64,000 nucleotides of DNA from a virus. Positions 1 through 24,557 of this stretch are shown here, one piece after another. The DNA lies in IMG/VR virus record IMGVR_UViG_3300032893_000005, positions 1 through 64,000 of that record; one strand, given 5' to 3'. Under the pieces are notes generated by a model. That model ran no database searches, was not told the DNA's origin, and worked only from the letters and a program-made list of their open reading frames with translations. How positions within the stretch are numbered: position 1 is the first letter of the stretch; each line of letters begins with the position of its first letter. The translations under genes were made by a program, and so were the position numbers.

Positions 1-3000
1 GTCTGAAACTGATCGTGGCCTCGCCTATCTTGAACGTGCTTACTGGCGTTGAACGAGCGAGTGCTGAAACCTGTGTCGTGCTCGCTGCCGCCTGGCCTAG
101 CAGAGTCATGGGCATGTTCTATGCTCTCTTGATGTTCAGAATGCAGCTTCTTCTCAACGTCTTCAGACAGCATGTCAGCCATGCGATGGCCTTCCTGCTG
201 CATCTTGGCCCAAGACTGCGTCAGGCGGTCTACCTTAGCCTTGTGAGCGTGCTTCAGGTACTGGTCGAAGGCCTTAGCTTGCTTGGCGCCAGAACTGTAC
301 GCTGCCTCGTGGATCTCAGGCAGACGGTTTAGAGCGTGAGCCATGCGCTGGCGCCCTTCCTGCGTGTTCACCACTTCACTTATGTGCCTTAACAGCTCAG
401 ACTTGTCATCGACCGGATACCCGTTGTCGACCATAGTGGCTCTGATAGCATGTAAGTCGTGTGGATGAACGAAGCTCAGGAGGTGGTCGACTGCGGGCTC
501 GCCGTGGTTGTCCATCAGGTAGTTGATGGGATACTCTAAGCCTTCGCTCTTGAAGATCTTAGAGTCAACGATTGCTCTAGCTGCTGCCGCATGGCGCTCC
601 CGCTCGACGTCGCTTAGCATACCGACATTCTTAGTGTCTTGAGCGCTAACACCAGCGAGCCGTGCGAGCTTAGGCTGCATCATGAACGCAGTTTTCTCGT
701 CCGACTGACGTTGCTCCGGCGTCATGGTAGAAGAAGCGGTAACTTGACCGAGCTGCTTCTGATACTCCCTCGGTGTCATACTGTCGGGTGTCATTAGTTG
801 ATGAGCGTACTCGTGCTCGGGCGAACCCCGCTCAGGCGTGAACAGAAGCTCGTTCTGCTTAGGGCCAACGCCGAAGCGATCTTGCCGGGACGCTCTCGCC
901 TTTATGCCTTGGCGTCCAAGCCAGCCGATGAAGCGCTTAGTGCGGTCATCGGAGCTTAAGTTCCGAGTCTTCTGACGCACGTTCTTCGAGCGCTTCTCTA
1001 GGACATCCTTCTCGGACGCCGCGAGCTGCTCATCTTCGTACTGAGTCAGGAAGTCGTGTAGTGGCTTCTGGGCAGGATGGAGGGCATCACGCTGAACCTT
1101 GAACCGGTTTTCCCAGATCAACTTCTTGGTAGCCGGAGACATGTTCGGCTGAGTCATGATGAGGTATCCAACGTCGCCGGGAGAATACTTTAGAGCTTTC
1201 TCGACGACCTTGTGCAGGAGTGGACCAGGAAGTTGGTTGACCGGCTCCTTACCATAACCGTGGTAGTGGTCTAAGCGTGACCAGCCGTTGTCCAGGGCAT
1301 TGACGTACTTCTCAACGACGTCAGCCGGTACGTCCGGGTGATTAACGATGGCCCTCTTGAGAGAAGACCTGTTGTTCCACGGAACCTGGTCAAACGAAGC
1401 GTGCAAGTTCCTGATCTCGTCAGGAGACATGCGATCGCGACGTATCAACTTCAGAGCCGAGTGGTCAAGCGGCGTCATGTTCATGTGATTGCGGCCTCTG
1501 GGAACTAACTGCATGACGTCAGACTCTTGAGCCGGTACAGGATTATGGCTAGAGACTAGGAACTCCTGCTCGTCGCCGTGATCGTCCGAAGAAGCTTCCT
1601 TAGGACCAACGTCGTACGAGTACCATACCTTACTGAGTGGAACCCATCGACGGTGTGCATGTTCTCCCAGAACTGGATGCTTCGTGTCAGAGTACGAAGC
1701 GAGAGCGTGGTCGGGTCCAGGAGTAGCGGTGCTGAGGCCACGAGTGAGGGCGACGCTGGGAACGCCGTTGACGTTCTTGATGTGCTGACCTGAGTATGTC
1801 TGAAGGAACTGATGTAACTTATTCTTGTGCTGGATGAGTTCGGCAGCCAATCCTTGAGCCTCGGCGACGAACTTCCTTAGAGCTGTCTTCCCGATGAGCC
1901 CGTTCTTCTTGCCCGCGTCACCCTTCTGATGATGAGTTAGGAAGTCAGAGTCGAGTACGTCCCTAGTTCCAGGATCAGCACCGTTGTAGGCATGTGCGTT
2001 TTCGATCCTGTGGATCATGTACTTGAGTGCCAACGCTCTTGGATGATGCGGTGAGTTCTTATATGACCGATAGAGGTCCTCAAGAGTAGCCTGGGGAGTT
2101 ATGGTCGTGTTTGGCTCGAGTTCGTCATTTTTCATCGGAAGATCTGGGTTATCGATCCGATGTTCTTCTTCGTCTGGATTATAGTCTGCCAATACCTTCT
2201 TAGGTTTGTAGTACGGGCCGACCTGACTCTCATCAATCACGTCTCCGTTAAGAGACTGCTGAAAGTTTGCGAACTCTTGTCCTGCGGGAGAGAAGTCTTT
2301 CCTAAGGTCTTCAAGACTGTCTTCACTCTTCTTGACCTTACTGAAACCGCGATCGTTGTAGCGAGCAAGCTCCTCGTCACCTCCACGATCGTGCTTCGCC
2401 TGATCCCAAGGATCGTCGAAGTGCATCTCTCGAACGGTAGGAACGTGCTTCCCTTCCTTCAACTCTTCGCCGTCTATGTGGTGACGGAAGTAGAGCGAGT
2501 TGCCGTGCTTGTCGCGTATGCCTGTGTAGAAGTCTTCGGGAGGCTCGGTGAACCACTGAGTGCCAGAGCCCTCGAGGTACTTGCCAGCATTTGGGCCATT
2601 GTAGAAGAAGAGCTTATGGTTGAACCCGTCAGACTCGATCGCACTCTCTTGGCCGTGCGCCTTGGCAATCTTGTGAAGAAGCTCAATGTTCTTAGGGCTT
2701 CTGACCATGATGGAGTTCTCAGGCGCACCGTAGTGTCCTTCTACCATCTGAGCATCTTCGCCTAGGTTCTTGAGTCGATCAACGACTTCTTCCGGCGTGC
2801 CCGAGGTCTGCTTAGGGTACATCGGGTTTTCGACAGTGAACAGGAAGTGATGTCCGAGAGTATGATCCTCAGACTTCTTCAGCAGAGAAGCCTTCTCGTG
2901 ATGCTCGGGCCGGATCTGCTCCTCAGCCTCGATCTCCTGAGGATGAAAGATGGCTACGACGTTACTCATCGTGCCGTGGCCAGAGTTCGTGAAGCCGTGG

Positions 3001-3329
3001 TAGCCGCGATCCTTGATCGCCTGCAGGTACTCGTCAGAAGTGACGAGGCCGGGGTTGGTGGTCTGGCCGGAGTTCTTCAGCTCTTGGTAGATGCTGTCTG
3101 GATCTTTGTAGACGTCGTAGATTCGCTGGCCAGGATGCAATGTTGCCCGATAGACGTGCGAGGCGCCGCTGGTTACGACGTTCTCTGGCGTAGTACCTTC
3201 AAGGTACCAATAACTACGAGTTACAGATGGAACTCCTTGTTTATTTTCTTCAGCAGGAGCGCCAGTCCCCTGCATCTCGGGGTTAATGGACTTAAGGTTT
3301 GACTTACGTGAATAATGAATTAGTTTCAT
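1..3329 (-). CDS. Modular polyprotein A (3'-truncated by window, >1100 aa): ART-like / SAM lyase-like / RSE-type ADP-ribosyltransferase / HExxH zincin / further module
   Basis: Not in the ORF track because it has no stop in the window. Hand translation from ATG 3329 (MKLIHYSRKSNLK..., ATGA overlap with the upstream stop) stays open to position 1. Motifs: GHYGAPENS..AKAHGQESAI, TRG..SYS..EQE, HEYAH. Linkers: LLKKSE, VKKSE, LAASE..LEKRS, IFKSE. Confidence 0.85.
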   Translation of the reverse strand, partial: MKLIHYSRKSNLKSINPEMQGTGAPAEENKQGVPSVTRSYWYLEGTTPENVVTSGASHVYRATLHPGQRIYDVYKDPDSIYQELKNSGQTTNPGLVTSDEYLQAIKDRGYHGFTNSGHGTMSNVVAIFHPQEIEAEEQIRPEHHEKASLLKKSEDHTLGHHFLFTVENPMYPKQTSGTPEEVVDRLKNLGEDAQMVEGHYGAPENSIMVRSPKNIELLHKIAKAHGQESAIESDGFNHKLFFYNGPNAGKYLEGSGTQWFTEPPEDFYTGIRDKHGNSLYFRHHIDGEELKEGKHVPTVREMHFDDPWDQAKHDRGGDEELARYNDRGFSKVKKSEDSLEDLRKDFSPAGQEFANFQQSLNGDVIDESQVGPYYKPKKVLADYNPDEEEHRIDNPDLPMKNDELEPNTTITPQATLEDLYRSYKNSPHHPRALALKYMIHRIENAHAYNGADPGTRDVLDSDFLTHHQKGDAGKKNGLIGKTALRKFVAEAQGLAAELIQHKNKLHQFLQTYSGQHIKNVNGVPSVALTRGLSTATPGPDHALASYSDTKHPVLGEHAHRRWVPLSKVWYSYDVGPKEASSDDHGDEQEFLVSSHNPVPAQESDVMQLVPRGRNHMNMTPLDHSALKLIRRDRMSPDEIRNLHASFDQVPWNNRSSLKRAIVNHPDVPADVVEKYVNALDNGWSRLDHYHGYGKEPVNQLPGPLLHKVVEKALKYSPGDVGYLIMTQPNMSPATKKLIWENRFKVQRDALHPAQKPLHDFLTQYEDEQLAASEKDVLEKRSKNVRQKTRNLSSDDRTKRFIGWLGRQGIKARASRQDRFGVGPKQNELLFTPERGSPEHEYAHQLMTPDSMTPREYQKQLGQVTASSTMTPEQRQSDEKTAFMMQPKLARLAGVSAQDTKNVGMLSDVERERHAAAARAIVDSKIFKSEGLEYPINYLMDNHGEPAVDHLLSFVHPHDLHAIRATMVDNGYPVDDKSELLRHISEVVNTQEGRQRMAHALNRLPEIHEAAYSSGAKQAKAFDQYLKHAHKAKVDRLTQSWAKMQQEGHRMADMLSEDVEKKLHSEHQESIEHAHDSARPGGSEHDTGFSTRSFNASKHVQDRRGHDQFQ

Positions 3330-3925
3330 GGCAATACAAACCTAACTCTTCCGTCTATCAAGACTTTCTTGCGCCTTCGTATAGAGGCAGCATGATTGCG
3401 AACGTGCCCTGCTGACTTTTTTCGTCCCAGTGCGGCCTTGGAAAGTTTCTCTTTATGTTCTTCGCTTAGAGGCCTGCCTTTCATCTTAGACGGTTTACCG
3501 GCCCTAGCCAATACACGCTTCTGAATATGTTCTGCGGACTGCTTTCTGCCACGCCAGTGGCTGGTGCCCGGTTTAAACTCAGTAGAAGGGCTAGCATGTT
3601 TGCCTTTATTAGCAATGGAGATTTTTTCCTTTACTACTTCAGACTTCTTTACTCCAGCAGATCCTTCTCCTCCCACAGACATATTAGCTTCGCAATACCC
3701 GAGGCTTTTATATAGGCGTATGAGTTCAATCTCCTTATCGAAGGCTTGTTTTTCCGTGAGATTTTTCGCAACAAACTCAAGCCTGCATTGAGTAAACTTC
3801 ATGATGTTTTTGAAGTAGCGGTTCCTGCCATCACTTTTCTTGTAAGCTCTCTTGCCGCATCCTTTACCTACGTAAAATGGGGTATTGGTATCTAATCTGA
3901 TATATCTATAAACGTAAAAGTTCAT
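3326..3925 (-). CDS. GIY-YIG homing endonuclease with NUMOD3-type repeats
   Basis: FYVY...FYVGKG..R..E..N; C-terminal SEEHKEKLS-like repeats; AT-richer than neighbours; 4-nt overlaps at both ends. Confidence 0.88.
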   Translation of the reverse strand: MNFYVYRYIRLDTNTPFYVGKGCGKRAYKKSDGRNRYFKNIMKFTQCRLEFVAKNLTEKQAFDKEIELIRLYKSLGYCEANMSVGGEGSAGVKKSEVVKEKISIANKGKHASPSTEFKPGTSHWRGRKQSAEHIQKRVLARAGKPSKMKGRPLSEEHKEKLSKAALGRKKSAGHVRNHAASIRRRKKVLIDGRVRFVLP

Positions 3926-4335
3926 AAATTACCACCGCCTAAGTCTTCCTGAGGAGTGGTGTACTGGAACTTACTGTCGTGGTCGTCCTGAGCCCGCTGA
4001 AGCAACTGGAAGTACTCGGGCTTAAGGACCTCGTCCTTGTGAGTCCACTCTTCCGGCTTGAACTTCTGAGCATGCTCTTCCCTTGCTTCGTGAAGCGCCT
4101 GGTCAAACTCAGCCTGACCTTCCGGGTCATCGCTGTAGTGATCGCGAAACACTTGAGGAGAGAAGTCGGCCATGTGGTGCTCGAACGCCAAGTTATGGTC
4201 AACGTAGTTGCTACGATGTAGGCCGTAGTTGTGTGCCCTGAACTTCTTCCGGTGCTCGTTGAGTGCGTTCTCGTAGTCTGACTTCGCCTTGAACTGCTTG
4301 AGGATGCCGACGACGTAGTTAGGATCGTTCATCAT
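3922..4335 (-). CDS. Hypothetical protein (His/Asp-rich, possible virion cargo)
   Basis: 137-aa ORF, strong SD (GGAGGAGG), overlaps the end of polyprotein B. Confidence 0.7.
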   Translation of the reverse strand: MMNDPNYVVGILKQFKAKSDYENALNEHRKKFRAHNYGLHRSNYVDHNLAFEHHMADFSPQVFRDHYSDDPEGQAEFDQALHEAREEHAQKFKPEEWTHKDEVLKPEYFQLLQRAQDDHDSKFQYTTPQEDLGGGNL

Positions 4336-7300
4336 CGCCTCCTCCCTTGTTCAAGTCTACCTCTTCTTCTTCGGATGCCGCGAGCTTGTCGTCGTCATCC
4401 TTGAAGCGTATCTTATCACCAAACATCTTCTTCTGTCGACGCTCTTCGATTTGACGCGCCCTGGCATGCTCTGGGTTATCGATCCAGCCTTGCAGAGGGT
4501 GAAAGATGATCTTCCTTGAGAGAACGTCCTCGATGCGCTGCCTGTTCTCGGGAGTGAGGAAGCGAGACTGACGAACTAGGTCAACCCACTTCTCCTTCTT
4601 CTTGCCGATGTTAACTCGAGTGCCAATTACTTGTGGAGGATCTTCAACTGACATGTACGGTGGAGCATCTTTACCTTCGGCTTCTGTGTAATACTTGTTG
4701 GCAGGAAGTCCAAGGTAGCGCCGGATCAACTGCTCAGCAGCCATAGGCTGAACTTCAGCGGAGTGCTTCTTCTGCTTCATGTACCCGTACTGACTCTGGA
4801 TGTCAGAGTACTGCTTGTCCATCAAAGACTGACCTGCCTTAAGGCCAACTCCCTTAGGAAGAAGCATCAAGTGAGCGATCTCATGGATCATGGCGTTCGG
4901 GTTCCACTGAGCCTCGAGCCTACCGCTTCTCCAGTCAGGCTTGTCTTCGCCTGGCTTGTCGTATCCAGGGCGGCGCTTGTTCTTCTTCTCGTCCCACTTA
5001 CCGCCGGACGGGTGAATCTTGAGCTGTAGGAAGTCTTGCGCGAACTTAGAGATATGCTTCATGTGCTTCTCGCGCATCTCAGATCCTGCGGGAGGTTGAT
5101 CCTTGGTTCCGAACACGTCGGCACGCTGCTCGCGGACGTTCTTCGACTTGTTCAACTCTTCGGACTTTCCGAACTGTTCCCTGCCGAGGTCTTCTTGCTG
5201 ATACTCCGAAGCTGCCAGTCGGCGAGGAGCCCGCCAGAGAGTATCGCTTTCCCTCCACATCTCGATCGGGTGAGTCTTAACCTTGATCGACGATGGATCA
5301 GCGATGAACCGATCGTAGACGTGCTTAGGAACGCTGATGTGTGGGATGTAGTTCGGAAACTTGTCAGGTCCGAGGTATTCCTCGAGGCCTTTGTGAACGT
5401 CCTGCATCCACTGCGGATGCTTCGTGAGCTTCAGTACGTGGTAGCGACCGTTCGGAGTATCGAAGATGTGAGGCTGAAGCTCGAACTTGTCTGGAACCAT
5501 GTGGGCCGTAGGTCCAAAGTAGTAGTCCAGGAAGTGCTTGCTTGGAGGATGCTCACCGGCGTGGCGTAGGGTTATGTGGTAGCGATGTCCGGTGACCGGA
5601 TCGCGAGTCTCGTCGTTGATCGTGACCGGCCACATCAGGTATGAGTGACCGTAATCCTTTTCGATGTGTGGAAAGTCCTTGTAGCGCCCAACTATGGGCT
5701 CGCCGACGTAGTCTGGCTCGCTCTTCTTTACCTTCATCTCTTCCCAGGTAGCGGGTTCATGAAAGAACTGATCCTCATAACCCTTCAGACTAGGATGTCC
5801 TAACTTACCCTTGGTAGGTACAAGTTCAGCCTGAACATGAGTATCTCCCCTCTTCTGAGCTGCGAGTACTCTATGATAGCCGTTAAGTAGATACATCTTT
5901 CCGTCTTTAACATGGACACCAACAGCTACCGGCTTGTCACTTACCTTAAAATCAGGAGTCCAATAAAAAGTCTTATGAGCATTTGCAACTCCTCCCGGAT
6001 CTTGATGGAGGTCTGAGATCTGGACCGTGGCAGGTTTTCGATAAACTTTCTTCTTGGCCTTATCTAGGTCATGCTCTGAGGCTGCGAGTTTCTCGGGCTT
6101 AGGCATGTAATCGGAGAAGTGACCGCGAAAGATAGAGTTGTGCTGCGGTTGGGAAGCGTCGGCAACGTAAACTTGATGGCGTTGACTTTCTTGATTGGGA
6201 TCTTTGGCGTATCGTCCAATCAACCCCTTCAGACCAGGGACGGATCTGAAGGAGAGCCACACTTTATGAGCTGCCGGTGAGACCCACGTATCAGACGACA
6301 GTCCTTGTTCCATTCCTTTCCCGTGAAGAAGTGCTGCTAGATAGGCTTGCTTACCGAGCCCTTTACCTCTCCACAACGGATGAACTTCAGACCACTGGAC
6401 TACGTTGGGTACCGTTCTTCCAGCGCCATGATACTCAGGGCCTTCGTTGGCTGTATGTACAACCGCTACGTTGGTATCGTATCCAGGATGAAAGATAGTG
6501 TGGACAAAGTTGTTTTCGTGCGGGAGCGCCTTCTTGTGCTGGTATTGACGGTATTGTAAACCATTAGGCAGCTTGACATTGTGAATGAGTTTATATTCTC
6601 TGCTATCATTGAAGATGTCATAGTCATGAGTTGCGTTCGAGGGATCTTGCTCATAGTCATACTGAAAGGGAGTCTTGCGAAGCGCCTCTGACTTCTTCAC
6701 GTCATCTTCGAGGGCGTTATGAGTGACGGTCTTGTAAGCAAGGTCCGGCAAGAGACCGGCCTTCTGATCTGCGTAGATTGTCTGGTGTGGGTTTGCGCGG
6801 TTATGCTCACCGTGCGGGCCGAAGTTGACCCAGGAGTTCTGACCGCGAGTTTCAGAAGTGAGGGCCTTCTGCGCCTCCGGCGAGTACATCTGCATGTGAT
6901 GTCGCCAAGCGTTCTCCTCACCGTTCGGACCAAAGCCGAAGCCTTCCTTCGCGTGACCGAAGTAGTCGTGCACGATCCTAAACATGTCGTTCGCCATCAT
7001 CGGCTTGCCGTGCTCGTCGAGGTGCTGAGTTGTCTGAAGCATTGGATGGGACTGGTCTACCTCGGCACCGGCTCCGTAACCGGTGCTGGTCGGGTAGTAC
7101 CACATGTGGTTGTTGTTTTCGATGTCGTGGAAGAGGTCTTTGGAGCCGTTCTTGTACGGGTTCTCCATGCCAGCAGGCATGGGCTCGATCTTTAAGCCGG
7201 TATTCTTGATGTGGGCGTACTGATCGCCGGTCTCGCGGACGAGCGCGTCGTACGCGGACTTCACTTCCGGGTGACTCGGGTCATGCTTCATCTGGTGGTA

Positions 7301-7510
7301 GGCGAGGGCGATCTTGGCAGCGTGATCACGATCAACCTTGACAGGCGCGATTGCATGGTTAAGCTGGATACCGCGTTGCGCGGCGTACTGGTCGGCGACC
7401 TGTCGGATGCGATCGTTCGGACGAGACTGCGCCTTCTCCAACTTCTCTTGGAGCTTCTGGGCCAGGACGACTTTGAAGAGGAGATCGACTTTAGACCGGA
7501 GATCAGGCAT
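4319..7510 (-). CDS. Modular polyprotein B (~1063 aa): HDxxGH metallopeptidase-like / GNAT / ParB-Srx-like / 2H phosphoesterase (Acb1-like) / HExxH zincin
   Basis: Motifs RIVHDYFGH..GEE; VHPLWRGKGLG; LLNGYHRVLA; YHITL..PHIS; HEIAH. ATG 7510 preceded by GGAG; LAASE / xxKS linkers between domains. Confidence 0.85.
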   Translation of the reverse strand: MPDLRSKVDLLFKVVLAQKLQEKLEKAQSRPNDRIRQVADQYAAQRGIQLNHAIAPVKVDRDHAAKIALAYHQMKHDPSHPEVKSAYDALVRETGDQYAHIKNTGLKIEPMPAGMENPYKNGSKDLFHDIENNNHMWYYPTSTGYGAGAEVDQSHPMLQTTQHLDEHGKPMMANDMFRIVHDYFGHAKEGFGFGPNGEENAWRHHMQMYSPEAQKALTSETRGQNSWVNFGPHGEHNRANPHQTIYADQKAGLLPDLAYKTVTHNALEDDVKKSEALRKTPFQYDYEQDPSNATHDYDIFNDSREYKLIHNVKLPNGLQYRQYQHKKALPHENNFVHTIFHPGYDTNVAVVHTANEGPEYHGAGRTVPNVVQWSEVHPLWRGKGLGKQAYLAALLHGKGMEQGLSSDTWVSPAAHKVWLSFRSVPGLKGLIGRYAKDPNQESQRHQVYVADASQPQHNSIFRGHFSDYMPKPEKLAASEHDLDKAKKKVYRKPATVQISDLHQDPGGVANAHKTFYWTPDFKVSDKPVAVGVHVKDGKMYLLNGYHRVLAAQKRGDTHVQAELVPTKGKLGHPSLKGYEDQFFHEPATWEEMKVKKSEPDYVGEPIVGRYKDFPHIEKDYGHSYLMWPVTINDETRDPVTGHRYHITLRHAGEHPPSKHFLDYYFGPTAHMVPDKFELQPHIFDTPNGRYHVLKLTKHPQWMQDVHKGLEEYLGPDKFPNYIPHISVPKHVYDRFIADPSSIKVKTHPIEMWRESDTLWRAPRRLAASEYQQEDLGREQFGKSEELNKSKNVREQRADVFGTKDQPPAGSEMREKHMKHISKFAQDFLQLKIHPSGGKWDEKKNKRRPGYDKPGEDKPDWRSGRLEAQWNPNAMIHEIAHLMLLPKGVGLKAGQSLMDKQYSDIQSQYGYMKQKKHSAEVQPMAAEQLIRRYLGLPANKYYTEAEGKDAPPYMSVEDPPQVIGTRVNIGKKKEKWVDLVRQSRFLTPENRQRIEDVLSRKIIFHPLQGWIDNPEHARARQIEERRQKKMFGDKIRFKDDDDKLAASEEEEVDLNKGGGDDERS

Positions 7511-7521
7511 AGACACTCCAG

Positions 7522-7540
7522 ATTAAGATGCTGGCCTAAA
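7522..7540 (-). promoter_or_regulatory. Putative late promoter TTTA-N7-ATCTTAAT upstream of polyprotein operon
   Basis: Minus strand TTTAggccagcATCTTAAT; same motif at four other structural-gene 5' ends. Confidence 0.65.
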
Positions 7541-7552
7541 GTGGCGAAACTC

Positions 7553-8119
7553 TTAGGAGTTCCGAAGGGTTATCTTGTTGGATTTAGATCGATTTTCAGC
7601 AGCGGGAAGAACCTGTAAGTTCCACGGAACATGAAGACCTGATACGTTTTCACCCTGCAGTGGTATGATATGGTCAACGTCCATAGCCACACCAAACTCT
7701 TTGGTGAGCCTCACCGCAGCATCGTAGAAGATCTCGATCTGCTGAAAGTGAGTCTCGGTAAGCCAAGGAGGGGTACGTTGGAGCTTAGCAAGGTCGTGCT
7801 TGGCAGCCTTGGCGCGTGCCTTAGCTGGATTACGTCTTTGCCAACGAGTAGAATGCAGAGTATGGGCCTCGGGATGACTCTTTCTCCAAGCCTCTCTTTG
7901 CTTAGATCGCTTTTCTACATTTTTTTGATAAAGAGATGAAAAACACGCCTTACAAGTACGCTGCAAACCATCGCCATTACAGCGATTTTTATGGAAACTG
8001 TCGAGAGATTTTTTATTTTTGCAAATTGAACAGTGTTTAAGGTGTGCTGAGCCGGACGCTACTCCGGCGGCATGCGTACTAGAGTTCATGCTTTCGCAGA
8101 TTACCTCTGTCTTCGGCAT
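7553..8119 (-). CDS. HNH homing endonuclease with N-terminal CxxC zinc module
   Basis: CSIC..CKAC; VDHIIPL..GLHVPWNL..N..KSN. Confidence 0.88.
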   Translation of the reverse strand: MPKTEVICESMNSSTHAAGVASGSAHLKHCSICKNKKSLDSFHKNRCNGDGLQRTCKACFSSLYQKNVEKRSKQREAWRKSHPEAHTLHSTRWQRRNPAKARAKAAKHDLAKLQRTPPWLTETHFQQIEIFYDAAVRLTKEFGVAMDVDHIIPLQGENVSGLHVPWNLQVLPAAENRSKSNKITLRNS

Positions 8120-8224
8120 CAGGTATTGTCTTCTCCCTGCGTGTTCCAGTGACTTATCCTTCAGGCTTTAATCCCAGCAGGCACCACAGCTTCCACGCCT
8201 TCAGCACATATTCAAAGTATCATG

Positions 8225-9133
8225 TTAGATGTTCGACATCAAGATCTTAACAGAGAAAAACGCCCTGATCAGGTCCTTGAGCTTCTCAGCCTTCTCTTCG
8301 AGTTCCTGATAACGCAGCGCATAAATCTGGTTACCGGGACCGGAGATCGACTGCGACGCGCCGTCGAGTCCTATGGACTGAGAGTTGTACTTGTTCAGAG
8401 GTGCCAGCATCGACAGAACTTCCATCGCGGCGTACGTTCCAATCAGGTCGTTTACCACTGAAGGTACTGAGTTTTCTTGAAAACCCGACGAGTACTTAAT
8501 ATACCAAAATCCAGGAACGTACTGTAACTTAGTGAAAACACTAAACAAAGCCGCAGCAGCACCACCGTACGAACCACCGGGGATCGTGCCGTTGATCGCG
8601 GACTGAAGTGGAACGAAGTCGAGGATGCCCTTGCGAGCCAAGCTCATGTTGACCCAGTCGAGGGTGAAGGTGTAGAGGATCACGCCTTCGCTCGTGGGGT
8701 CGTTCGTAGGATCATCGTAGGGAGCGCTCACGCCGTTCTGAACCGAGTAGGAAGACGACGTTCTGATCGAGATCTCGTGGAGGGTCGTGACGTTGCGGCG
8801 ACCGACCGAGATCTGACCCCAGCCTTGGTCCCACTTCGTCTTGTCCCACATGTCTTTGTAGACGCGGGTGACCGGGAAGACGTCGATGTTGCACTCAAGC
8901 TCGACGCGGGCCGCGCCGTTGTCGATGATCTCCTTCAGAGTCTCGTCGGACAGCGTCTGCTTGGTGAGTGGATGCTTTAGGGGTATGCCGAACAGCCATC
9001 GGGCCTTGAGGCGGTCGACGTCGAGGTACTTTTCGACGCGGGTGAAGCCCGCAGCTCCCTTGCCGTTGACCGTCTGCACGTTCTGTGGGTACGTGCCTGA
9101 TATGTTTGGCTTGAAGTTTGACTGATCGCTCAT
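8225..9133 (-). CDS. Putative head-tail adaptor/neck protein
   Basis: 302 aa; Y.SGF...P..V.DLI..YAA and SIGLDG.SQS motifs resembling Twort/SPO1-like neck proteins; downstream of capsid module. Confidence 0.6.
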   Translation of the reverse strand: MSDQSNFKPNISGTYPQNVQTVNGKGAAGFTRVEKYLDVDRLKARWLFGIPLKHPLTKQTLSDETLKEIIDNGAARVELECNIDVFPVTRVYKDMWDKTKWDQGWGQISVGRRNVTTLHEISIRTSSSYSVQNGVSAPYDDPTNDPTSEGVILYTFTLDWVNMSLARKGILDFVPLQSAINGTIPGGSYGGAAAALFSVFTKLQYVPGFWYIKYSSGFQENSVPSVVNDLIGTYAAMEVLSMLAPLNKYNSQSIGLDGASQSISGPGNQIYALRYQELEEKAEKLKDLIRAFFSVKILMSNI

Positions 9134-9548: not shown

Positions 9549-9890
9549 TTAAATCTTCCCCATCAGCATTCTTACGAGCTGTGCGATGTAGTACATCGCT
9601 GCGGGAAACGCGACGAGCGCGATCATGATCTTACCGAGGAAGTTGACGTTGTTGACGTGCTTCTGAATCGGCGCGATCTTCCCTTCCAGCTCTTGCTTGA
9701 TCAACTCGTTCTGCTCTCGCGCTAGCCGCACTGACTCCATGTGCTGCCTTAAGTTCTCTTCCTGGACGGCCAGGATCTTGTTTACCGACTTCATCTCACC
9801 CTTCAGTTCACTCACGTCAGCCCCTATGAGGCCTACCTTGGTGTCTAGGGAGGCAATCTGGGCGATTGTCTTGGAGTCTCTTGGAGGCAT
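9549..9890 (-). CDS. Coiled-coil protein with C-terminal TM helix (possible holin-like)
   Basis: Heptad N-terminus, hydrophobic FLGKIMIALVAFPAAMYYIA; follows the late motif. Confidence 0.5.
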   Translation of the reverse strand: MPPRDSKTIAQIASLDTKVGLIGADVSELKGEMKSVNKILAVQEENLRQHMESVRLAREQNELIKQELEGKIAPIQKHVNNVNFLGKIMIALVAFPAAMYYIAQLVRMLMGKI

Positions 9891-9947: not shown

Positions 9948-9966
9948 ATTAAGATCTTGAGCTAAA
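9948..9966 (-). promoter_or_regulatory. Putative late promoter
   Basis: Minus strand TTTAgctcaagATCTTAAT. Confidence 0.65.
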
Positions 9967-11244: not shown

Positions 11245-11467
11245 GAGTAAGGCTCTAGGAGAGGTGTCTGCCAAGGTCAGAAACCTGATCTTGGAGTTAC
11301 CGGAGCCGAGCATGATGTCCAAGGAGGAAGAAGGGTACTTGAAGCAGGCCGTGACCGGCGTGCTGGCAGTCCTTGAGTCGCGCGGGACAATCCGCCGTGG
11401 CTTTGAGTTCAACATCAACTTCGTCCATATGGGCGTCGACTTCACACATCCCGATGATAGAGCCTAA
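11237..11467 (+). CDS. Hypothetical protein
   Basis: Coupled ORF MSESKALG... Confidence 0.55.
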   Translation: MSESKALGEVSAKVRNLILELPEPSMMSKEEEGYLKQAVTGVLAVLESRGTIRRGFEFNINFVHMGVDFTHPDDRA

Positions 11468-13589
11468 CTGGAAGTTCGCCAAGAATGGGACGAAGTACTG
11501 GACGTGGCTCGTCGCCCAAGACGATCCGAACATGACTTACCAGGTCACCAGGCTCTCGTTCTTCAAGACCGCAAACAAGGTAACGCTTCGCGCCAAGGTA
11601 GCGTCTCACAAGTACGTGTCGTCTCGAGTAAAGGAGACCAAGACTCGCGAGATGAACATCATGTCGTTCTACCTTCGCAAGGGTAAGACGCTCGAGGTCT
11701 ACCGCCGGAAGAACATAGGCTTCCCGCACATCTTGTCCGAGAAGAAGATGAAGTTCAACAACATCTCGAACGAGCTTCAGTCGCACATAGGCCAGATCGC
11801 CAGCCTCGTCAAGTACTCGGGCAAGATCAACAAGATGTTCCATACGCACAAGGTGACTGACTATGCACTTCAGATCTGGTTCTGCCGCTACCTCGAGGCC
11901 GCGCTCAAGGACCTGATGAAGGACAACGGCATCGAGTACAATGTTCCGGATGAAGACTACGACCCGCACCTTCGCTTCGCAGCCAGCATCATCGAGTACC
12001 GCTACCCGATCATCAAGACGCTCAGGCAGGACTGGATCAAGTATCACAGGTCACAGATAGTACCAGGGATCATAGATAAAGCGACGTCGGTAAACAGGGA
12101 GACTGGCCTTGGCAATCCAGAAGTCAAGAAGATCATCCCGTCGTACCGCTTCCACCTAGGACACATAAGACCGATCGTGCTGAAGGAGCTTGCGAAGTGC
12201 AAGGACATCAAGGATGTCGTACGCCGGTTCACAGGGAACGAGGGAAAGCTCTCAACCAAGTCTGTCTTTCAGTGCTTCTACGCCACGATGCACGACTTCT
12301 ACAGCGAAGACCAGTACCGGTCGAACAACCTGTCGGGCAAAGTTCGCGCTCACGAAGTTAGGGAGAAGTACTCAGGAAACGTCTACATGACGATCACCGG
12401 CGGCATCGACGTCAACCTCCTCCTCATGGCGCTCTCGCTCAAGGGCATCCTAACGACCGATCACATGAACAACGTGCTAGGTAACTACCTCTTATCGAAG
12501 CAGTCTGCAGGCTTCCGAGGGTCGAGCAGCTTCTCGAGCGGGATCTACTCACTGCTGGTGGACGCTGCGAAGGACAACCTGTACGACCCGCGTGACGTCG
12601 CCTACAAGTACGCGTTCGAGAACGACCGATCGTGCATAGTTGCGTGGAGGAAATCCCTCAAGAAGTTCCGTAAGGACGACAAGATCGTCATGACCAGGGT
12701 GCGGGAGTTCATAAAGCTGCTTGGTAACTCAAAGAAGATAGCTGACCTCGTCAACGATGACAGCCTCTCGTTCTTCAACGACACGTTCAAGCAATGGTGG
12801 GTCGCAAACGGCAAGATCGCGATGCCGGACAAGATCAAGAGCCTTCGCGAACTGCATGACTACATTGCAAAGGAGTACAGGAAGCTCACGTCGAAGGACT
12901 TCGACCTCGGCCTGATGGAAGTCGACTGGGTGAAGCCCCTGCACGGACTTGAGTTCTCAGACATCAGGACCAAGCGCCACTACATGATCCAGATTCCTCA
13001 GTCGAACTTCGACATCGTCGAGTGGGGCCAGCAGATGAACAACTGCATCGGCGGTTACGGTACCCGCGTCCGCGATGGTAATGGGAAGCAAGTCCTACTT
13101 GCCGTCTGGGTCGCCGGTAAGATGAAGTACAACCTCGAGATCTACGACAAGCAGGTGAAGCAGTTCTACGGCAAGGGGAACTCGACAGCCGACAGGGACG
13201 ACAAGGAAGTCTTCATGGCTTCGTTCAAGTTCCTGAAGGACTACGACGGTATGTTCCGGTACGAGATCCAGGCAGTTCAGGAAGACATCGCGCGGGCTCT
13301 TCAGCTCCCGCCAGGTGATCTACTTGCTAACCCTGAGTACGGCATCGCGGCTCAACGACGCGAAGAAGATCACTACCTTGACGCTATGAGATACGCCATG
13401 GCTCAACCGCAGCAGGTCGTGGTGCCTCCGCCTCCAGGCATCGAGGGAGAGCCTGAAGTGGTCAACATCGAATTGCCGCAGGTCGAGCCGGTCAGGTATC
13501 AGCTCTACAGAGCGCGGGCTGGCGGCGATGATAACGGTGTCAGAGTAAACTGGGACTTATGGGAACAAGAACAAGCCGAGGAGGGCTGA
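11454..13589 (+). CDS. PcfJ-domain protein
   Basis: C-terminal ELHD...IP.S..DIVEWGQQMNNCIGGY...LEI...QFYGKGN; likely start ATG 11454. Confidence 0.75.
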   Translation: MIEPNWKFAKNGTKYWTWLVAQDDPNMTYQVTRLSFFKTANKVTLRAKVASHKYVSSRVKETKTREMNIMSFYLRKGKTLEVYRRKNIGFPHILSEKKMKFNNISNELQSHIGQIASLVKYSGKINKMFHTHKVTDYALQIWFCRYLEAALKDLMKDNGIEYNVPDEDYDPHLRFAASIIEYRYPIIKTLRQDWIKYHRSQIVPGIIDKATSVNRETGLGNPEVKKIIPSYRFHLGHIRPIVLKELAKCKDIKDVVRRFTGNEGKLSTKSVFQCFYATMHDFYSEDQYRSNNLSGKVRAHEVREKYSGNVYMTITGGIDVNLLLMALSLKGILTTDHMNNVLGNYLLSKQSAGFRGSSSFSSGIYSLLVDAAKDNLYDPRDVAYKYAFENDRSCIVAWRKSLKKFRKDDKIVMTRVREFIKLLGNSKKIADLVNDDSLSFFNDTFKQWWVANGKIAMPDKIKSLRELHDYIAKEYRKLTSKDFDLGLMEVDWVKPLHGLEFSDIRTKRHYMIQIPQSNFDIVEWGQQMNNCIGGYGTRVRDGNGKQVLLAVWVAGKMKYNLEIYDKQVKQFYGKGNSTADRDDKEVFMASFKFLKDYDGMFRYEIQAVQEDIARALQLPPGDLLANPEYGIAAQRREEDHYLDAMRYAMAQPQQVVVPPPPGIEGEPEVVNIELPQVEPVRYQLYRARAGGDDNGVRVNWDLWEQEQAEEG

Positions 13590-14002: not shown

Positions 14003-15391
14003 TTACTGAGTAAGGTTGTCGACCAGCATGTTGAAGCGGGGAAGCTTCACGACAGCGGTACAGAACCGGAAGTATGCCTTCGGCATGGTCAAGTCTGTGC
14101 GAGCAAGCTCGTAGGACTTGAAGGGCGAGAGTTCGGAGATCTCCAAACCGCGCATGTCGAGGGCGAAGCCAGTCACGAAGCCGGGGACGCGGTTGTTGAG
14201 GTCGTTGAAGACCACAGCCGAGGAGCCCATAGCTTTTACGCGACCGATGTACTGGGTAGCGGTTCCGTTGGCCAGCGAGCGGTACACGTTGTAGTACAAC
14301 ACGCGGGGACCAGCGTTCGGAGTGATGGTCAGGTTGACCTGGTTACCGGTAGCGGCGATCGTAGCAGCGGGCGACAACGAGGCAGCGGGCGACTCACCGA
14401 CTTCGTTTACTGCAGTAGCGATGTACTGGTAAACTTCGCCAGCGTTGAAGCTGGTCGAGGCAGCGGCCTGAGCCGAAGCCAAGGAGGGAGCAGCGGGCGA
14501 ACCGACGAGGACGCGGGCCGGAGCGGTCTTACCAGACAAGAACCGGCTGGACTCGAGGCTGATGGCACCGCCAGCAACGAACTGTTCTTTGAGAGTCGCG
14601 CCAGTGGCGTGCTGGGGAGAACCAGCCAAGAAGATGCGTTCCTTGTTGAACGCGATCTTGTTGTAAGCCGAGAGAGTCAAGGGGTCCAGGTAGATCTTCT
14701 CAGGAGCACCGTGGTTCATCTGCGTACGAGCGTACACATCTTCGATCGTGGTCTGAGTGAGCTGACCGTTCTGGTTCAACTGAACCGACTGGTTGGCACC
14801 GTACTCAGAGAACATCAAGTCCTTAGCGCTGTCGAGGTAGTCGCCGATGCGGATCTGGGGGTCCAGACCTTGCATGCCGGGTTCTTGCTCGGCCATCGCC
14901 AACGGGTTACCGTCGAAGGCACCGCTGTCGGAGTAAGCGGACTTACCACGGAACAGGTGGAACTCGATGTCACCGGCGATCTTTAAGGCTGCGTCAGCGT
15001 CAGCGCGATCTTCCGAGTTCACACCGTCAAAGGTCTGAACCAGAGTCGACTGGAGAGTAACCCGACGGATGTGGACGTAGTAGGCCATCGGAACCACTGC
15101 ACGAATGTACGTGCTGGTATGTTCTTGACCGACTGCACCTTCGTTAACGGCTGATCCGCCGAAAACACCGTAGTCGAGTTGACGGTTGAACTGAACAAGC
15201 GTCCCTTTAGCGGGAGTGGATTTGAAAATCCGTTGCAGCTTGATCATCTGATCTGTGAACGTAGCCACGTTCATGACCGGACTGAGGTCCTCCATCTGGA
15301 GGGCTGAACCTTGGGTGAGAGACGACGGTTGAGCATTATACCCACCGGCTTCAATCGTCTTTCTTAGTTCTTCAACTTGTTGTTGCAACAC
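14003..15391 (-). CDS. Major capsid protein (Twort/SPO1-like, with Ig/FN3-like insertion)
   Basis: N-terminal ELRK/TIEAGG...GSALQMEDL; IEFHLFRG; inserted YQYIATAVNEVGES..YNVYRS; downstream of scaffold; strong SD with GTG start. Confidence 0.9.
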   Translation of the reverse strand: MLQQQVEELRKTIEAGGYNAQPSSLTQGSALQMEDLSPVMNVATFTDQMIKLQRIFKSTPAKGTLVQFNRQLDYGVFGGSAVNEGAVGQEHTSTYIRAVVPMAYYVHIRRVTLQSTLVQTFDGVNSEDRADADAALKIAGDIEFHLFRGKSAYSDSGAFDGNPLAMAEQEPGMQGLDPQIRIGDYLDSAKDLMFSEYGANQSVQLNQNGQLTQTTIEDVYARTQMNHGAPEKIYLDPLTLSAYNKIAFNKERIFLAGSPQHATGATLKEQFVAGGAISLESSRFLSGKTAPARVLVGSPAAPSLASAQAAASTSFNAGEVYQYIATAVNEVGESPAASLSPAATIAATGNQVNLTITPNAGPRVLYYNVYRSLANGTATQYIGRVKAMGSSAVVFNDLNNRVPGFVTGFALDMRGLEISELSPFKSYELARTDLTMPKAYFRFCTAVVKLPRFNMLVDNLTQ

Positions 15392-15408: not shown

Positions 15409-16434
15409 TTACTGAATCACTTTTAACAGTTCGGGTGAACGCTTTCCTGTGGCATAGAAGTCCAGGATTGCGTCATGTTCTTTCTTCGAGAAGGTAGCGA
15501 GCTTCTTGTTGTCAGAAGTCACATCCTTCAGCTTCTTCGTGATGTCCTCTTTGGACATCTTCTCGACTTCGGCCTTCTTCAAGGCCTCTTCGCCGCGATC
15601 AACGAACTGTACGTCAGTGATGCTGTTGGCAGCACGAACCTTCGGACGGTTGATCATGTGCGAGACGATGGCGGTCATGTCACCGAGAGCCTTCTTCAGC
15701 TCTTCGTTTTCCTTCTCGGCCTTCGTCATGCGCTCTTCAGCTTTAGCGAGCTTCTCGCCAACTTCCTTCTCAGCCATAGCCATTGCCATAGCGGGAGCAG
15801 GAGCTTGGGCGGGAGCGCCGGGAGCAGCGGGCGAACCTTGAGGAGCAGCGGCAGAACCCGAGGCAGAAGCCATGCGGGCTTCCATCTCAGCCTTCACCTT
15901 CTGGCTCAGCTCTTGAAGCATGTCGTCGTCCAACTGTTGAAGTTGGCTTTCGATGCTTTCCAGCTCAGCACCGGCGGCGGGAGCCGACTCGGACGGAGCG
16001 GGAGCAGATGCAGAGGGGTCGGCAGCGGGGCTCGAAGCAGAAGCCGAAGCTTCGGGAGCTTGCGACTCGTATCCAGAACCTGAAGAAGACTCGTCGTCTT
16101 TCTTCATGCTGGCCGAGCTGGACGAGCTTGAGGACTCTTCACGCTTGGCAACACTGGAACTCGAGCTGGACGAAGAAGACTCTTCACCCTTCTCAACAGA
16201 CTTGCCCTTGGCGTTGCCGGGGCTGTCAGAGTTCAGTTCTTTGCCAGGACGCGATTCAGAGATCGGTTTGGTCTTGTTCGAGGGCTGCGCAGAGTCTGCG
16301 TTCAGCTCCTTGCCAGGACGCGAGAGATCTGCTTTGTTCAGATCTGTGCCTTCCGGCTGAGTTTTCAGAAGTTTCTGGACTTCAGTACTAACTTCAGCGA
16401 GAAGAGCTTTAATGTCGACGTTTTCAACTGACAT
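15409..16434 (-). CDS. Capsid scaffolding protein
   Basis: Low-complexity Ser/Ala/Pro plus coiled coil, many LxK-A/T sites, immediately upstream of MCP. Confidence 0.75.
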   Translation of the reverse strand: MSVENVDIKALLAEVSTEVQKLLKTQPEGTDLNKADLSRPGKELNADSAQPSNKTKPISESRPGKELNSDSPGNAKGKSVEKGEESSSSSSSSSVAKREESSSSSSSASMKKDDESSSGSGYESQAPEASASASSPAADPSASAPAPSESAPAAGAELESIESQLQQLDDDMLQELSQKVKAEMEARMASASGSAAAPQGSPAAPGAPAQAPAPAMAMAMAEKEVGEKLAKAEERMTKAEKENEELKKALGDMTAIVSHMINRPKVRAANSITDVQFVDRGEEALKKAEVEKMSKEDITKKLKDVTSDNKKLATFSKKEHDAILDFYATGKRSPELLKVIQ

Positions 16435-16994: not shown

Positions 16995-17013
16995 CTCAAG
17001 ATTTGGACGTAAA
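16995..17013 (-). promoter_or_regulatory. Putative late promoter (variant) for capsid operon
   Basis: TTTAcgtccaaATCTTGAG followed by ATAGCAGTCA, which is shared with the 24539 copy. Confidence 0.55.
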
Positions 17014-17063: not shown

Positions 17064-18014
17064 TTAGATGGCCTTAAATAAACGCTCGTAAATTACCGTA
17101 AACTCCTGCTCATACCGCTTGAGGCGGCGCTGACGGAGAACCTTCATGATGTTTCCGATCTGCTGTTCCTTCAGGCCGGGTACGGCTGCGGAGATCAGGT
17201 CGCGGCTTATCGGCTTCTCACCTAAAGCGGACTCGAGCTTGTCGAGGTGCGACTTGGACGTCTGCAGGGCCGAGCCCTGAGAGAGTGCAGAGGGAGCGGC
17301 GTTCATACCACCGGCGGCGATCGTCTTCTTGAGTTTACGCAAAGCGTTCGTCAAGCCGAAGTCGTCCAGTACGAAGAACTGACGCTCGTTGTTGAAGCTA
17401 GTTAGGAAAACACTACCGTCCTGGGACGCCTTGGTAACTACCTCGGGCGTGGTGTCTCGCGACGCTGTGTCTTTGATAACCGCTTGAATAACCGCTGCTT
17501 TATTGCATGGCTTGGCCGTAGCCGCCACGCGCCGGATGATGGTTTCCTTAAGGTTACCACCTTCCCGCTTAAGGACGTTACCCTCGACCGAGAACCCGAT
17601 CATGTGATCGAAGTTGCCGTCGCGGGCCTGTCGGATGATCGCTGAAGCCGCCTGAGCATTCGGATGATCCGGCGAGTCAAAGAACTCACAGTATCCGAAG
17701 ATCAGGGGAACCTTCAGGTCGTTCCACGCCTTCTTCTCGAGGTCGTTGTCACAGTCTTCTTCGCCGAAGATCTTCTTGGCGTCCATGACTCGACCGACTA
17801 TCGTATTGAAACCTCTCTCTTTTTCAGCATTGGTGCTCTCAAGATCATCCTTGCCAAGGTCGTCGGGGTTGACGTGCTCGGTGTTGATCGGCGCGTTGCC
17901 GTTCTTGAGCGAACTTATGTCGGCGCCCTTGACGTCGAGCGTCTCGCCGGAGGTATCCGGGCACTCGGCGGTAAGTACGGCAGCAACGACTATGTTCTTC
18001 CTAAGAGCTTCCAT
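17064..18014 (-). CDS. Prohead (maturation) protease
   Basis: D.SGE...INTEH...GFSVEG...VAAT.KPCN (HK97/U35-like His/Ser motifs); lies between portal and scaffold. Confidence 0.85.
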   Translation of the reverse strand: MEALRKNIVVAAVLTAECPDTSGETLDVKGADISSLKNGNAPINTEHVNPDDLGKDDLESTNAEKERGFNTIVGRVMDAKKIFGEEDCDNDLEKKAWNDLKVPLIFGYCEFFDSPDHPNAQAASAIIRQARDGNFDHMIGFSVEGNVLKREGGNLKETIIRRVAATAKPCNKAAVIQAVIKDTASRDTTPEVVTKASQDGSVFLTSFNNERQFFVLDDFGLTNALRKLKKTIAAGGMNAAPSALSQGSALQTSKSHLDKLESALGEKPISRDLISAAVPGLKEQQIGNIMKVLRQRRLKRYEQEFTVIYERLFKAI

Positions 18015-18022
18015 GATCCACT

Positions 18023-18041
18023 ATTAAGATCTAGGCTTAAA
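18023..18041 (-). promoter_or_regulatory. Putative late promoter for protease
   Basis: TTTAagcctagATCTTAAT, 8 nt from the ATG. Confidence 0.65.
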
Positions 18042-24538: not shown

Positions 24539-24557
24539 ATTAAGATCTGGCGATAAC
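24539..24557 (-). promoter_or_regulatory. Putative late promoter for portal operon
   Basis: GTTAtcgccagATCTTAAT. Confidence 0.6.

Follow-up and report, generated by a model that had tools for sequence, protein, structure and literature searches.

In the first 64 kb of a 154,091-bp IMG/VR virus contig (record IMGVR_UViG_3300032893_000005; we refer to this stretch of 64,000 nucleotides as the window), a giant late protein, here called polyprotein A, carries an internal domain that is homologous to the S-adenosylmethionine (SAM) lyases of the phage T3 type. This homology is solid. With moderate confidence, we read the domain as a divergent T3-type SAM lyase ‘cassette’ of a late polyvalent protein, one that would be packaged and injected to lower SAM in the infected cell. 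In T3-like podoviruses, the SAM lyase is known as the first of the early genes; here, the T3 fold appears as a conserved cassette of giant late head-operon proteins, in a family of hundreds of clusters that are almost only metagenomic. The phage itself is Mx1-like, its major capsid protein (MCP) being 51% identical to that of Myxococcus phage Mx1. The features on which the argument turns are:

3..3329, minus strand: polyprotein A (P0001), an open reading frame of at least 1109 aa
2460..2855, minus strand, residues 159-290: the SAM-lyase-fold domain, supported by the AlphaFold2 model, VIA alignment, 406 homologues and the PF23780 matches of its family
2340..2459, minus strand, residues 291-330: a low-confidence tail (predicted local distance difference test, pLDDT, 51-70) running from the domain to the downstream linker

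Fold and family of the domain

An AlphaFold2 model of the module, built from a 19-sequence alignment, has a mean pLDDT of 86.7, rising to 94-98 over module residues 5-135, and shows a domain of eight strands and two helices, arranged as the beta-barrel with two outer helices expected of the T3 type. The first-pass annotation of this DNA, made from the letters alone, had proposed a Foldseek comparison against the T3 SAMase and Svi3-3 as a check of its SAM lyase assignment; both enzymes are indeed found, with T3 far ahead. All of the top five matches in the PDB are SAM lyases, namely T3 (8BB1, 7OCK) and Svi3-3 (6ZM9), and VIA-align superposes module residues 5-131 on residues 10-153 of the T3 chain 8bb1_E with a Z score of 10.2 and a root-mean-square deviation of 3.5 over 118 aligned residues. 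A scan of 48,161 representative chains, made independently of Foldseek, gave the same ranking: T3 chain 7ock_L at Z 9.8 (122 residues aligned), then Svi3-3 at 5.5, and all others at or below 4.8. Matches in BFVD comprise early proteins of T7-like phages, some of them named SAM hydrolase, together with large proteins annotated as ‘ART-PolyVal-like’ or ‘structural’.

Profile searches with other members of the family lead to the same enzymes (gathering cut-offs 28 bits for PF23780, S-AdoMet_lyase, and 25 bits for PF11697, DUF3293). Amongst the 19 short members of the family, 12 match PF23780 at E<=0.1, the best at 6.2e-9, and two of them, P0086 (33 bits) and P0118 (34.1 bits), which are 39-41% identical to the window copy, exceed the cut-off over profile positions 1-131; for comparison, T3 gp0.3 scores 143 bits on this model. 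DUF3293 is matched by three of the 19 at E<=0.1 (best 4.4e-6), and the copy in phage Mx1 gives sub-threshold matches to both models, that to DUF3293 reaching 21.5 bits. Both families had been named in the earlier annotation: the T3-type homology held, on the strength of the 12 matches, the two that pass the cut-off and the standing of T3 as the only strong structural match, and so did the weaker likeness to DUF3293, through its three matching members. Neighbours of the module in the ESM Atlas are clusters that carry PF23780 or DUF3293, with scores below 0.9, and we treat these as a lead only.

The same annotation had placed the module at 2475-2860, without naming a strand. All of the strings that it quoted are found in the minus-strand frame of the 3..3329 open reading frame, with FLFTVENP beginning at residue 162, MVEGHYGAPENSIMV at 195-209, IAKAHGQESAI at 221-231 and EDFYT at 265-269. 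A compact block between linkers is what we find too; its bounds needed adjustment, the conserved stretch at 2460-2855 being slightly wider. Beyond it, tail residues 291-330 are partly kept in P0002 (1080 aa), an orthologue of polyprotein A with 34% identity over residues 1-858.

HMMER, run exhaustively over 1.84 billion cluster representatives, returned 406 homologues at E<=1e-3, 204 of them at E<=1e-10, and every one of the 406 aligns over module residues ~5-135; with one stretch of ~130 residues common to all, the domain goes far beyond a chance match to a motif. Exhaustive searching of representatives was needed here, a word-index protein search limited to proteins of 99-317 aa having failed to find homologues of the module. 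The best 150 homologues have a median length of 628 aa and a maximum of 2570 aa, and place the domain N-terminally in a long protein (84), internally (28), C-terminally (19) or in a short protein (19). Two metagenomic homologues, P0004 (1165 aa) and P0077 (1461 aa), fuse it to mCpol, a minimal CRISPR polymerase that resembles the Cas10 palm (E 3e-15 and 4e-13, respectively), and others carry PI3/PI4-kinase-like and GNAT segments.

Active-site residues and a shortened T-loop

To place the ligand-binding residues, 151 domain sequences were aligned by hhalign with 85 T3-like PF23780 proteins (down to 33% identity). This gave one full-length alignment of 115 columns with a score of 24.3, as compared with 15.1 for a reversed control and 9.3-14.7 for 20 column shuffles. 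The correspondences, all of them on the minus strand and all from hhalign, are listed below; conservation is that within the 151-sequence family, in which overall identity is ~40%.

G198, minus strand: T3 G55; G 95% conserved
Y200, minus strand: T3 Y57; Y 96% conserved
E204, minus strand: T3 E68; E 97% conserved
S206, minus strand: T3 T70; S 90% conserved
2712..2738, minus strand: G198-H-Y200-G-A-P-E204-N-S206, covering the end of strand 2, a very short T-loop and the start of strand 3
Q227, minus strand: T3 Q94; Q 99% conserved
E228, minus strand: T3 D95
S229, minus strand: T3 C96; S 97% conserved
2643..2654, minus strand: B-loop G226-Q227-E228-S229, following helix 2 and equivalent to T3 Q94-D95-C96 and Svi3-3 Q104-E105-S106; G 100% conserved
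2616..2618, minus strand: H238, equivalent to T3 H105 (invariant in the T3-like family); H 97% conserved

G-x-Y, E-x-S and Q-E-S of the module all align with T3. The spacing ‘G.Y..E’ proposed in the first-pass annotation is slightly off, the sequence being in fact G-H-Y-G-A-P-E, and the annotation overlooked how much shorter the loop from Y to E is than that of any characterised lyase.

In Svi3-3 and the T3 SAMase, these residues orient SAM such that its own carboxylate attacks the gamma-carbon, yielding methylthioadenosine and homoserine lactone (PMC7877911; bioRxiv 10.1101/2023.02.27.530186). Only three positions, Svi3-3 G56, E69 and Q104, are strictly conserved in active SAM lyases according to Guo et al. 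(PMC7877911), who also report that Svi3-3 Y58 packs on the sulfonium and that the E69Q substitution nearly abolishes activity; in T3, activity is lost when E68Q and Q94A are combined (Andriianov et al., bioRxiv 10.1101/2023.02.27.530186). That the ligand-binding residues are 95-99% conserved in a family of ~40% identity argues for a preserved active site. It also bears on the possibility that catalysis has been lost and that the domain acts as a binding module (for instance as a MetK-type inhibitor, the second function of the T3 protein) or as inert head cargo or scaffold. A catalytically dead T3 SAMase does still block BREX through MetK binding (bioRxiv 10.1101/2023.02.27.530186), and a short T-loop could impair enclosure of the substrate; against this, 95-99% conservation of G, Y, E, Q and H speaks for selection on the active site itself, and an internal module has nothing that corresponds to the free N-terminal tail with which T3 binds MetK, such that we consider this explanation very unlikely.

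The one conspicuous departure from known enzymes lies in the T-loop (in PII-like nomenclature), which encloses the ligand and by its conformation distinguishes SAM lyases from SAM-AMP lyases (PMC12255297; PMC7877911). The spacing from the tyrosine to the glutamate is 4-5 in 150 of the 151 family members, as against 11 in 84 of the 85 T3-like proteins, in Svi3-3 and in gp6 of Synechococcus phage S-CREM2; the T-loop of ~10-12 residues of the known enzymes (PMC12255297) is not found in the family of the window copy. Judged by its sequences, the family is a distinct structural variant, and its substrate is not to be taken for granted; the shortened T-loop makes it a natural test of substrate choice within the SAM-lyase fold. 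Amongst 50,697 deposited phage genomes searched, only Mx1 carries this short-T-loop sub-family.

Late operon, linkers and a route into the cell

From 26.4 kb downward, the minus strand encodes, in order, the large terminase, portal, head-maturation protease, an acidic scaffold-like protein and MCP, followed, after several further genes, by polyprotein B (1065 aa), a 137-aa open reading frame, a homing endonuclease and polyprotein A. A promoter-like motif, KTTA-N7-ATCTTRA, occurs five times, always on the minus strand, where 0.05 copies would be expected, and four of the copies lie just upstream of the operons that contain polyprotein B, scaffold/MCP, protease and portal.

7523..7540, minus strand: promoter-like motif just upstream of polyprotein B
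9949-9966, minus strand: promoter-like motif upstream of the gene at 9549-9890
16996-17013, minus strand: promoter-like motif, one of the five copies
18024-18041, minus strand: promoter-like motif, one of the five copies
24540-24557, minus strand: promoter-like motif, one of the five copies

No minus-strand terminator-like site was found between 7516 and 3, that is, from polyprotein B to polyprotein A, and a scan of 1-8400 for sigma-70-type promoters and terminators stayed at or below background. Given its place in the head operon, the shared motif and the lack of a terminator-like site between B and A, polyprotein A is very probably co-expressed with the head genes; the earlier description of the module as ‘late’ draws its support from the same operon position and motif.

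Processing-type linkers flank the domain:

2868..2885, minus strand, residues 149-154: upstream linker LLKKSE, a candidate L-x-K / L-K-K processing site
2298..2339, minus strand: downstream linker VKKSE (residues 331-335; 2325-2339), then LRK (342-344), read from the translation

These boundaries, already picked out in the first-pass annotation, are confirmed, and a related motif is found ahead of the domain in other members of the family. Of the 70 homologues in which 30 or more residues precede the domain, 37 have [LIVMFY]-x-K-[SNATD]-[ED] within 30 aa upstream, at a density seven times that in the rest of the same proteins (binomial P ~6e-24, a figure that overstates independence, the sequences being related). 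Similar junctions occur in the head proteins of the window. The N-terminus of MCP (ELRK then TIEAGG..., 14003-15391, minus strand) resembles an internal segment of the protease (LRKLKK then TIAAGG..., 17064-18014, minus strand), with ~20 residues in common after the L-x-K junction, and the scaffold-like protein (15409-16434) contains several L-x-K-A/T sites. Taken from sequence, this suggests an L-x-K cleavage rule, under which cutting at LLKK and LRK would free a fragment of ~190 aa.

We propose the following model. Residues ~159-290 would form a monomeric beta-barrel with two outer helices that keeps the G/Y pair, the T-loop-end glutamate and the B-loop glutamine, and would constitute one cassette of a late polyvalent protein that also carries ADP-ribosyltransferase (ART)-like and HExxH modules and is very probably transcribed with the head genes. 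Polyprotein A would be loaded into the prohead, possibly cut at its L-x-K-type linkers to release the ~190-aa fragment (roughly residues 153-344), and ejected with the DNA; SAM would then be lowered at the very start of infection, weakening type I and III restriction, BREX and similar SAM-dependent defences. Should the cassette be active and injected, SAM-depletion counter-defence would begin before any phage transcription. The analysis itself shows homology and fold, conserved residues, the position in the operon and recurring linkers; catalysis, substrate, cleavage, packaging, target and injection, and hence the delivery as protein suggested in the first-pass annotation, are inferred. The type of barrel fits such a role: the 2.8-Å structure of the T3 SAMase bound to MetK shows a monomeric barrel of nine strands, whereas Svi3-3 forms trimers whose active sites lie between subunits, and because the module matches the former it could work as a cassette without a free-standing oligomer. 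Unlike the trimeric Svi3-3 type, a monomeric barrel would also explain the modular shuffling of this enzyme.

An active SAM lyase need not be packaged, and might act late in the producing cell, for instance to leave progeny DNA unmethylated or to shut down host SAM metabolism. Late operon position alone is no proof of packaging, and the literature searched contained no virion proteome for the window phage or for Mx1. We nonetheless regard this alternative as improbable: packaging is predicted for proteins of this pattern, in which several cassettes, ART-like and HExxH modules included, are encoded amongst virion genes (PMC5512222), the domain has processing-type linkers on both sides, a PF23780 protein is present in S-CREM2 virions (PMC10665884), and the ART-like module resembles, albeit weakly (Z 5.6), a chain of the cyanophage A4 pre-ejectosome.

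Several observations weigh against the reading of the domain as an injected T3-type SAM lyase. At the level of sequence, the window copy has no match to PF23780 even at E<=10, nor any to the DUF3293 model, and neither the full-length protein nor the module alone gave anything useful against Pfam and PHROGs; in PDB sequences, phmmer with the module gave nothing relevant and the family profile found no chain; and no meaningful alignment came from hhalign when the family was set against T3 by itself or a narrow T3 family, just as the hidden Markov model of that narrow family hit no member of the window-copy family below E 0.1. With regard to the linkers, orthologue P0002 does not contain KKSE strings and has L-Y-K-N and L-K-K-N in their place, so that any functional site here would more likely have L-x-K as its core. 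The T-loop, cut to 3-4 residues, is 6-7 shorter than in all characterised SAM and SAM-AMP lyases, and since this loop encloses the substrate and sets specificity for SAM versus SAM-AMP, the pocket and substrate may differ. Lastly, there is the matter of dose. Svi3-3 turns over ~10 SAM per second (PMC7877911), and T3 makes ~10,000 copies of its SAMase per cell; we estimate that draining the SAM of a cell would occupy a few tens of injected copies for many minutes, and that they could not achieve it within the first. Virion cargo could thus deplete SAM in bulk only at a high copy number, such as some internal head proteins reach; failing this, the target would have to be local or scarce.

This last point keeps alive a further alternative, in which fold and chemistry are the same and the substrate is a SAM conjugate, such as SAM-AMP (the signal of type III CRISPR-CorA systems), or some other sulfonium nucleoside, the domain then serving as a virion-delivered destroyer of signals. 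Few packaged copies of an enzyme could more realistically deal with a signal of low abundance, and the uniquely short T-loop of the family would open the site; SAM-AMP lyases have the SAM-lyase fold with only the E and Q residues in common, their substrate being picked by T-loop conformation (PMC12255297), and the fusions of the domain to mCpol in P0004 and P0077 are suggestive, if unexplained. Set against these points, the best structural match by far is the monomeric barrel of the T3 SAM lyase rather than the trimeric PII-like type to which SAM-AMP lyases belong, the sulfonium-stacking tyrosine and the equivalent of H105 are T3-like, and the AMP-binding residues of the C. botulinum enzyme (W64, C66, F84 and Y122) cannot be traced in the window-copy family; we judge a conjugate substrate unlikely. 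In its most elaborate form, which we think quite unlikely, the sub-family as a whole (406 clusters) would be a lyase of a low-abundance SAM-derived immune signal, be it SAM-AMP or an undescribed sulfonium nucleotide, delivered in the virion, freed by the prohead protease and silencing signalling defences before phage genes are expressed.

Known systems and the other modules

The closest characterised relative of the cassette, which we continue to favour as a T3-type SAM lyase, is T3 gp0.3 (PF23780; 8BB1, 7OCK). The two are alike in fold (Z 9.8-10.2, with 118-122 of ~150 residues aligned), in being of the monomeric barrel type and in their G-x-Y, E-x-S/T, Q-D/E and H positions; they differ in that identity is only ~12-17%, the T-loop of the module is 6-7 residues shorter, and T3 gp0.3 is a 152-aa product of the first-expressed early gene, whereas the module sits inside a late protein of more than 1100 aa, as one of its cassettes. 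A scan of the whole 154-kb contig with PF23780 found no canonical stand-alone SAM lyase. Svi3-3 (6ZM9) and the C. botulinum SAM-AMP lyase share with the module a ferredoxin-like core, together with a glutamate where the T-loop ends and a glutamine in the B-loop, but are PII-like trimers with inter-subunit active sites; the module, by contrast, has T3-like C-terminal strands that close the barrel, as well as a much shorter T-loop.

For packaging, the nearest precedent is gp6 of S-CREM2, annotated as a ‘SAM hydrolase’, for which 19 peptides were detected by mass spectrometry in purified virions (PMC10665884); a packaged SAM lyase is, in view of this, no new idea. Gp6 is a canonical PF23780 domain (70 bits, E 2.3e-19) fused to extra sequence, and its match to the family of the window copy is weak (hhalign E 0.039). 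At 414 aa, it is a two-part protein of a T4-like cyanophage rather than one module amongst several in a polyvalent protein.

Iyer et al. 2017 (PMC5512222) described the polyvalent proteins of phages and conjugative elements, and predicted their packaging and injection. Polyprotein A resembles them in being a giant late protein that strings together unrelated modules of conflict type (SAM-lyase fold, ART-like, HExxH) amongst virion genes. The recurrence of modules that marks such proteins is seen here too, with the SAM-lyase domain standing N-terminally, internally or C-terminally in 131 long proteins, as is their late-gene setting, polyprotein A lying on the same strand as, and downstream of, the genes for large terminase, portal, protease and MCP. 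A text search of Iyer et al. 2017 found no mention of SAMase, SAM hydrolase, S-adenosylmethionine, AdoMet or DUF3293, the punctuation by L-x-K / K-S-E linkers is not described there, and our literature searches returned no description of a SAM lyase domain in a polyvalent-protein arrangement. What is new, then, is a divergent short-T-loop sub-family that is invisible to Pfam in the window copy, its size (406 clusters) together with its near-absence from cultured phages, and its occurrence between linkers, as one cassette of Mx1-like head polyproteins. Because standard annotation misses the window copy, cargo enzymes have probably been under-counted.

The copy in Mx1 (WNM70344.1, hypothetical, 559 aa; L001:5197-6876) is 35% identical over the module. 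Its gene adjoins that for the tail sheath, the protein is without the ART-like N-terminal module, and the domain is flanked on both sides by proline-rich repeats (K-M-E-x-P-A-x-K-E-x-A-N-G-G-P), unlike the linkers of the window phage. P0118 (L005:6001-6414) is a stand-alone protein of 137 aa, whose gene lies between genes for proteins of 163 aa and 1218 aa, with stop/start overlaps, and with a 969-aa GNAT/kinase-like gene upstream; the region looks like a polyvalent protein that has been split into separate genes.

Two further modules of polyprotein A can be recognised:

2886..3329, minus strand, residues 1-148: ART-like N-terminal module (AlphaFold2 pLDDT 77; VIA neighbours)
801..815, minus strand, residues 839-843: HEYAH, an HExxH (zincin-like) motif read from the translation

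The VIA neighbours of residues 1-148 are almost all of the ADP-ribosyltransferase fold (Z 4-5.9), and include MbcT, RES, the catalytic domain of diphtheria toxin, AcrIF11 and tankyrases, along with the cyanophage A4 chain noted above; a language-model search of the Atlas gave ART-PolyVal as a lead. Pfam ART-PolyVal (PF18760) had no match in the contig at E<=10, or in the isolated N-terminal module at E<=1, and we regard an ADP-ribosyltransferase-like fold for this predicted structure as a lead and not as proof. Six IMG/VR contigs (L006-L011) encode further copies of this ART-like module, at varied positions in proteins of 483-2938 aa; one of them also has a SAM-lyase-like segment, in another order. 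For the later module that contains HExxH, no family match was obtained.

At its start, polyprotein A overlaps the preceding gene, its ATG at 3329 sharing ATGA with the stop of the homing-endonuclease gene. At the other end, the open reading frame runs off the start of the contig, and the C-terminus is therefore missing; were the ends of the contig joined without missing sequence, the frame would stop ~24 codons further on. CheckV puts the completeness of the contig at 94%, and end repeats were not found. The homing-endonuclease gene (3326-3925, minus strand) and an HNH/endonuclease VII-like gene (7553-8119, minus strand) are interleaved with the polyprotein genes, and, within the structural region, a plus-strand gene (11373-13589) encodes a 738-aa protein with a PcfJ-like domain (PF14284, E 1.9e-10).

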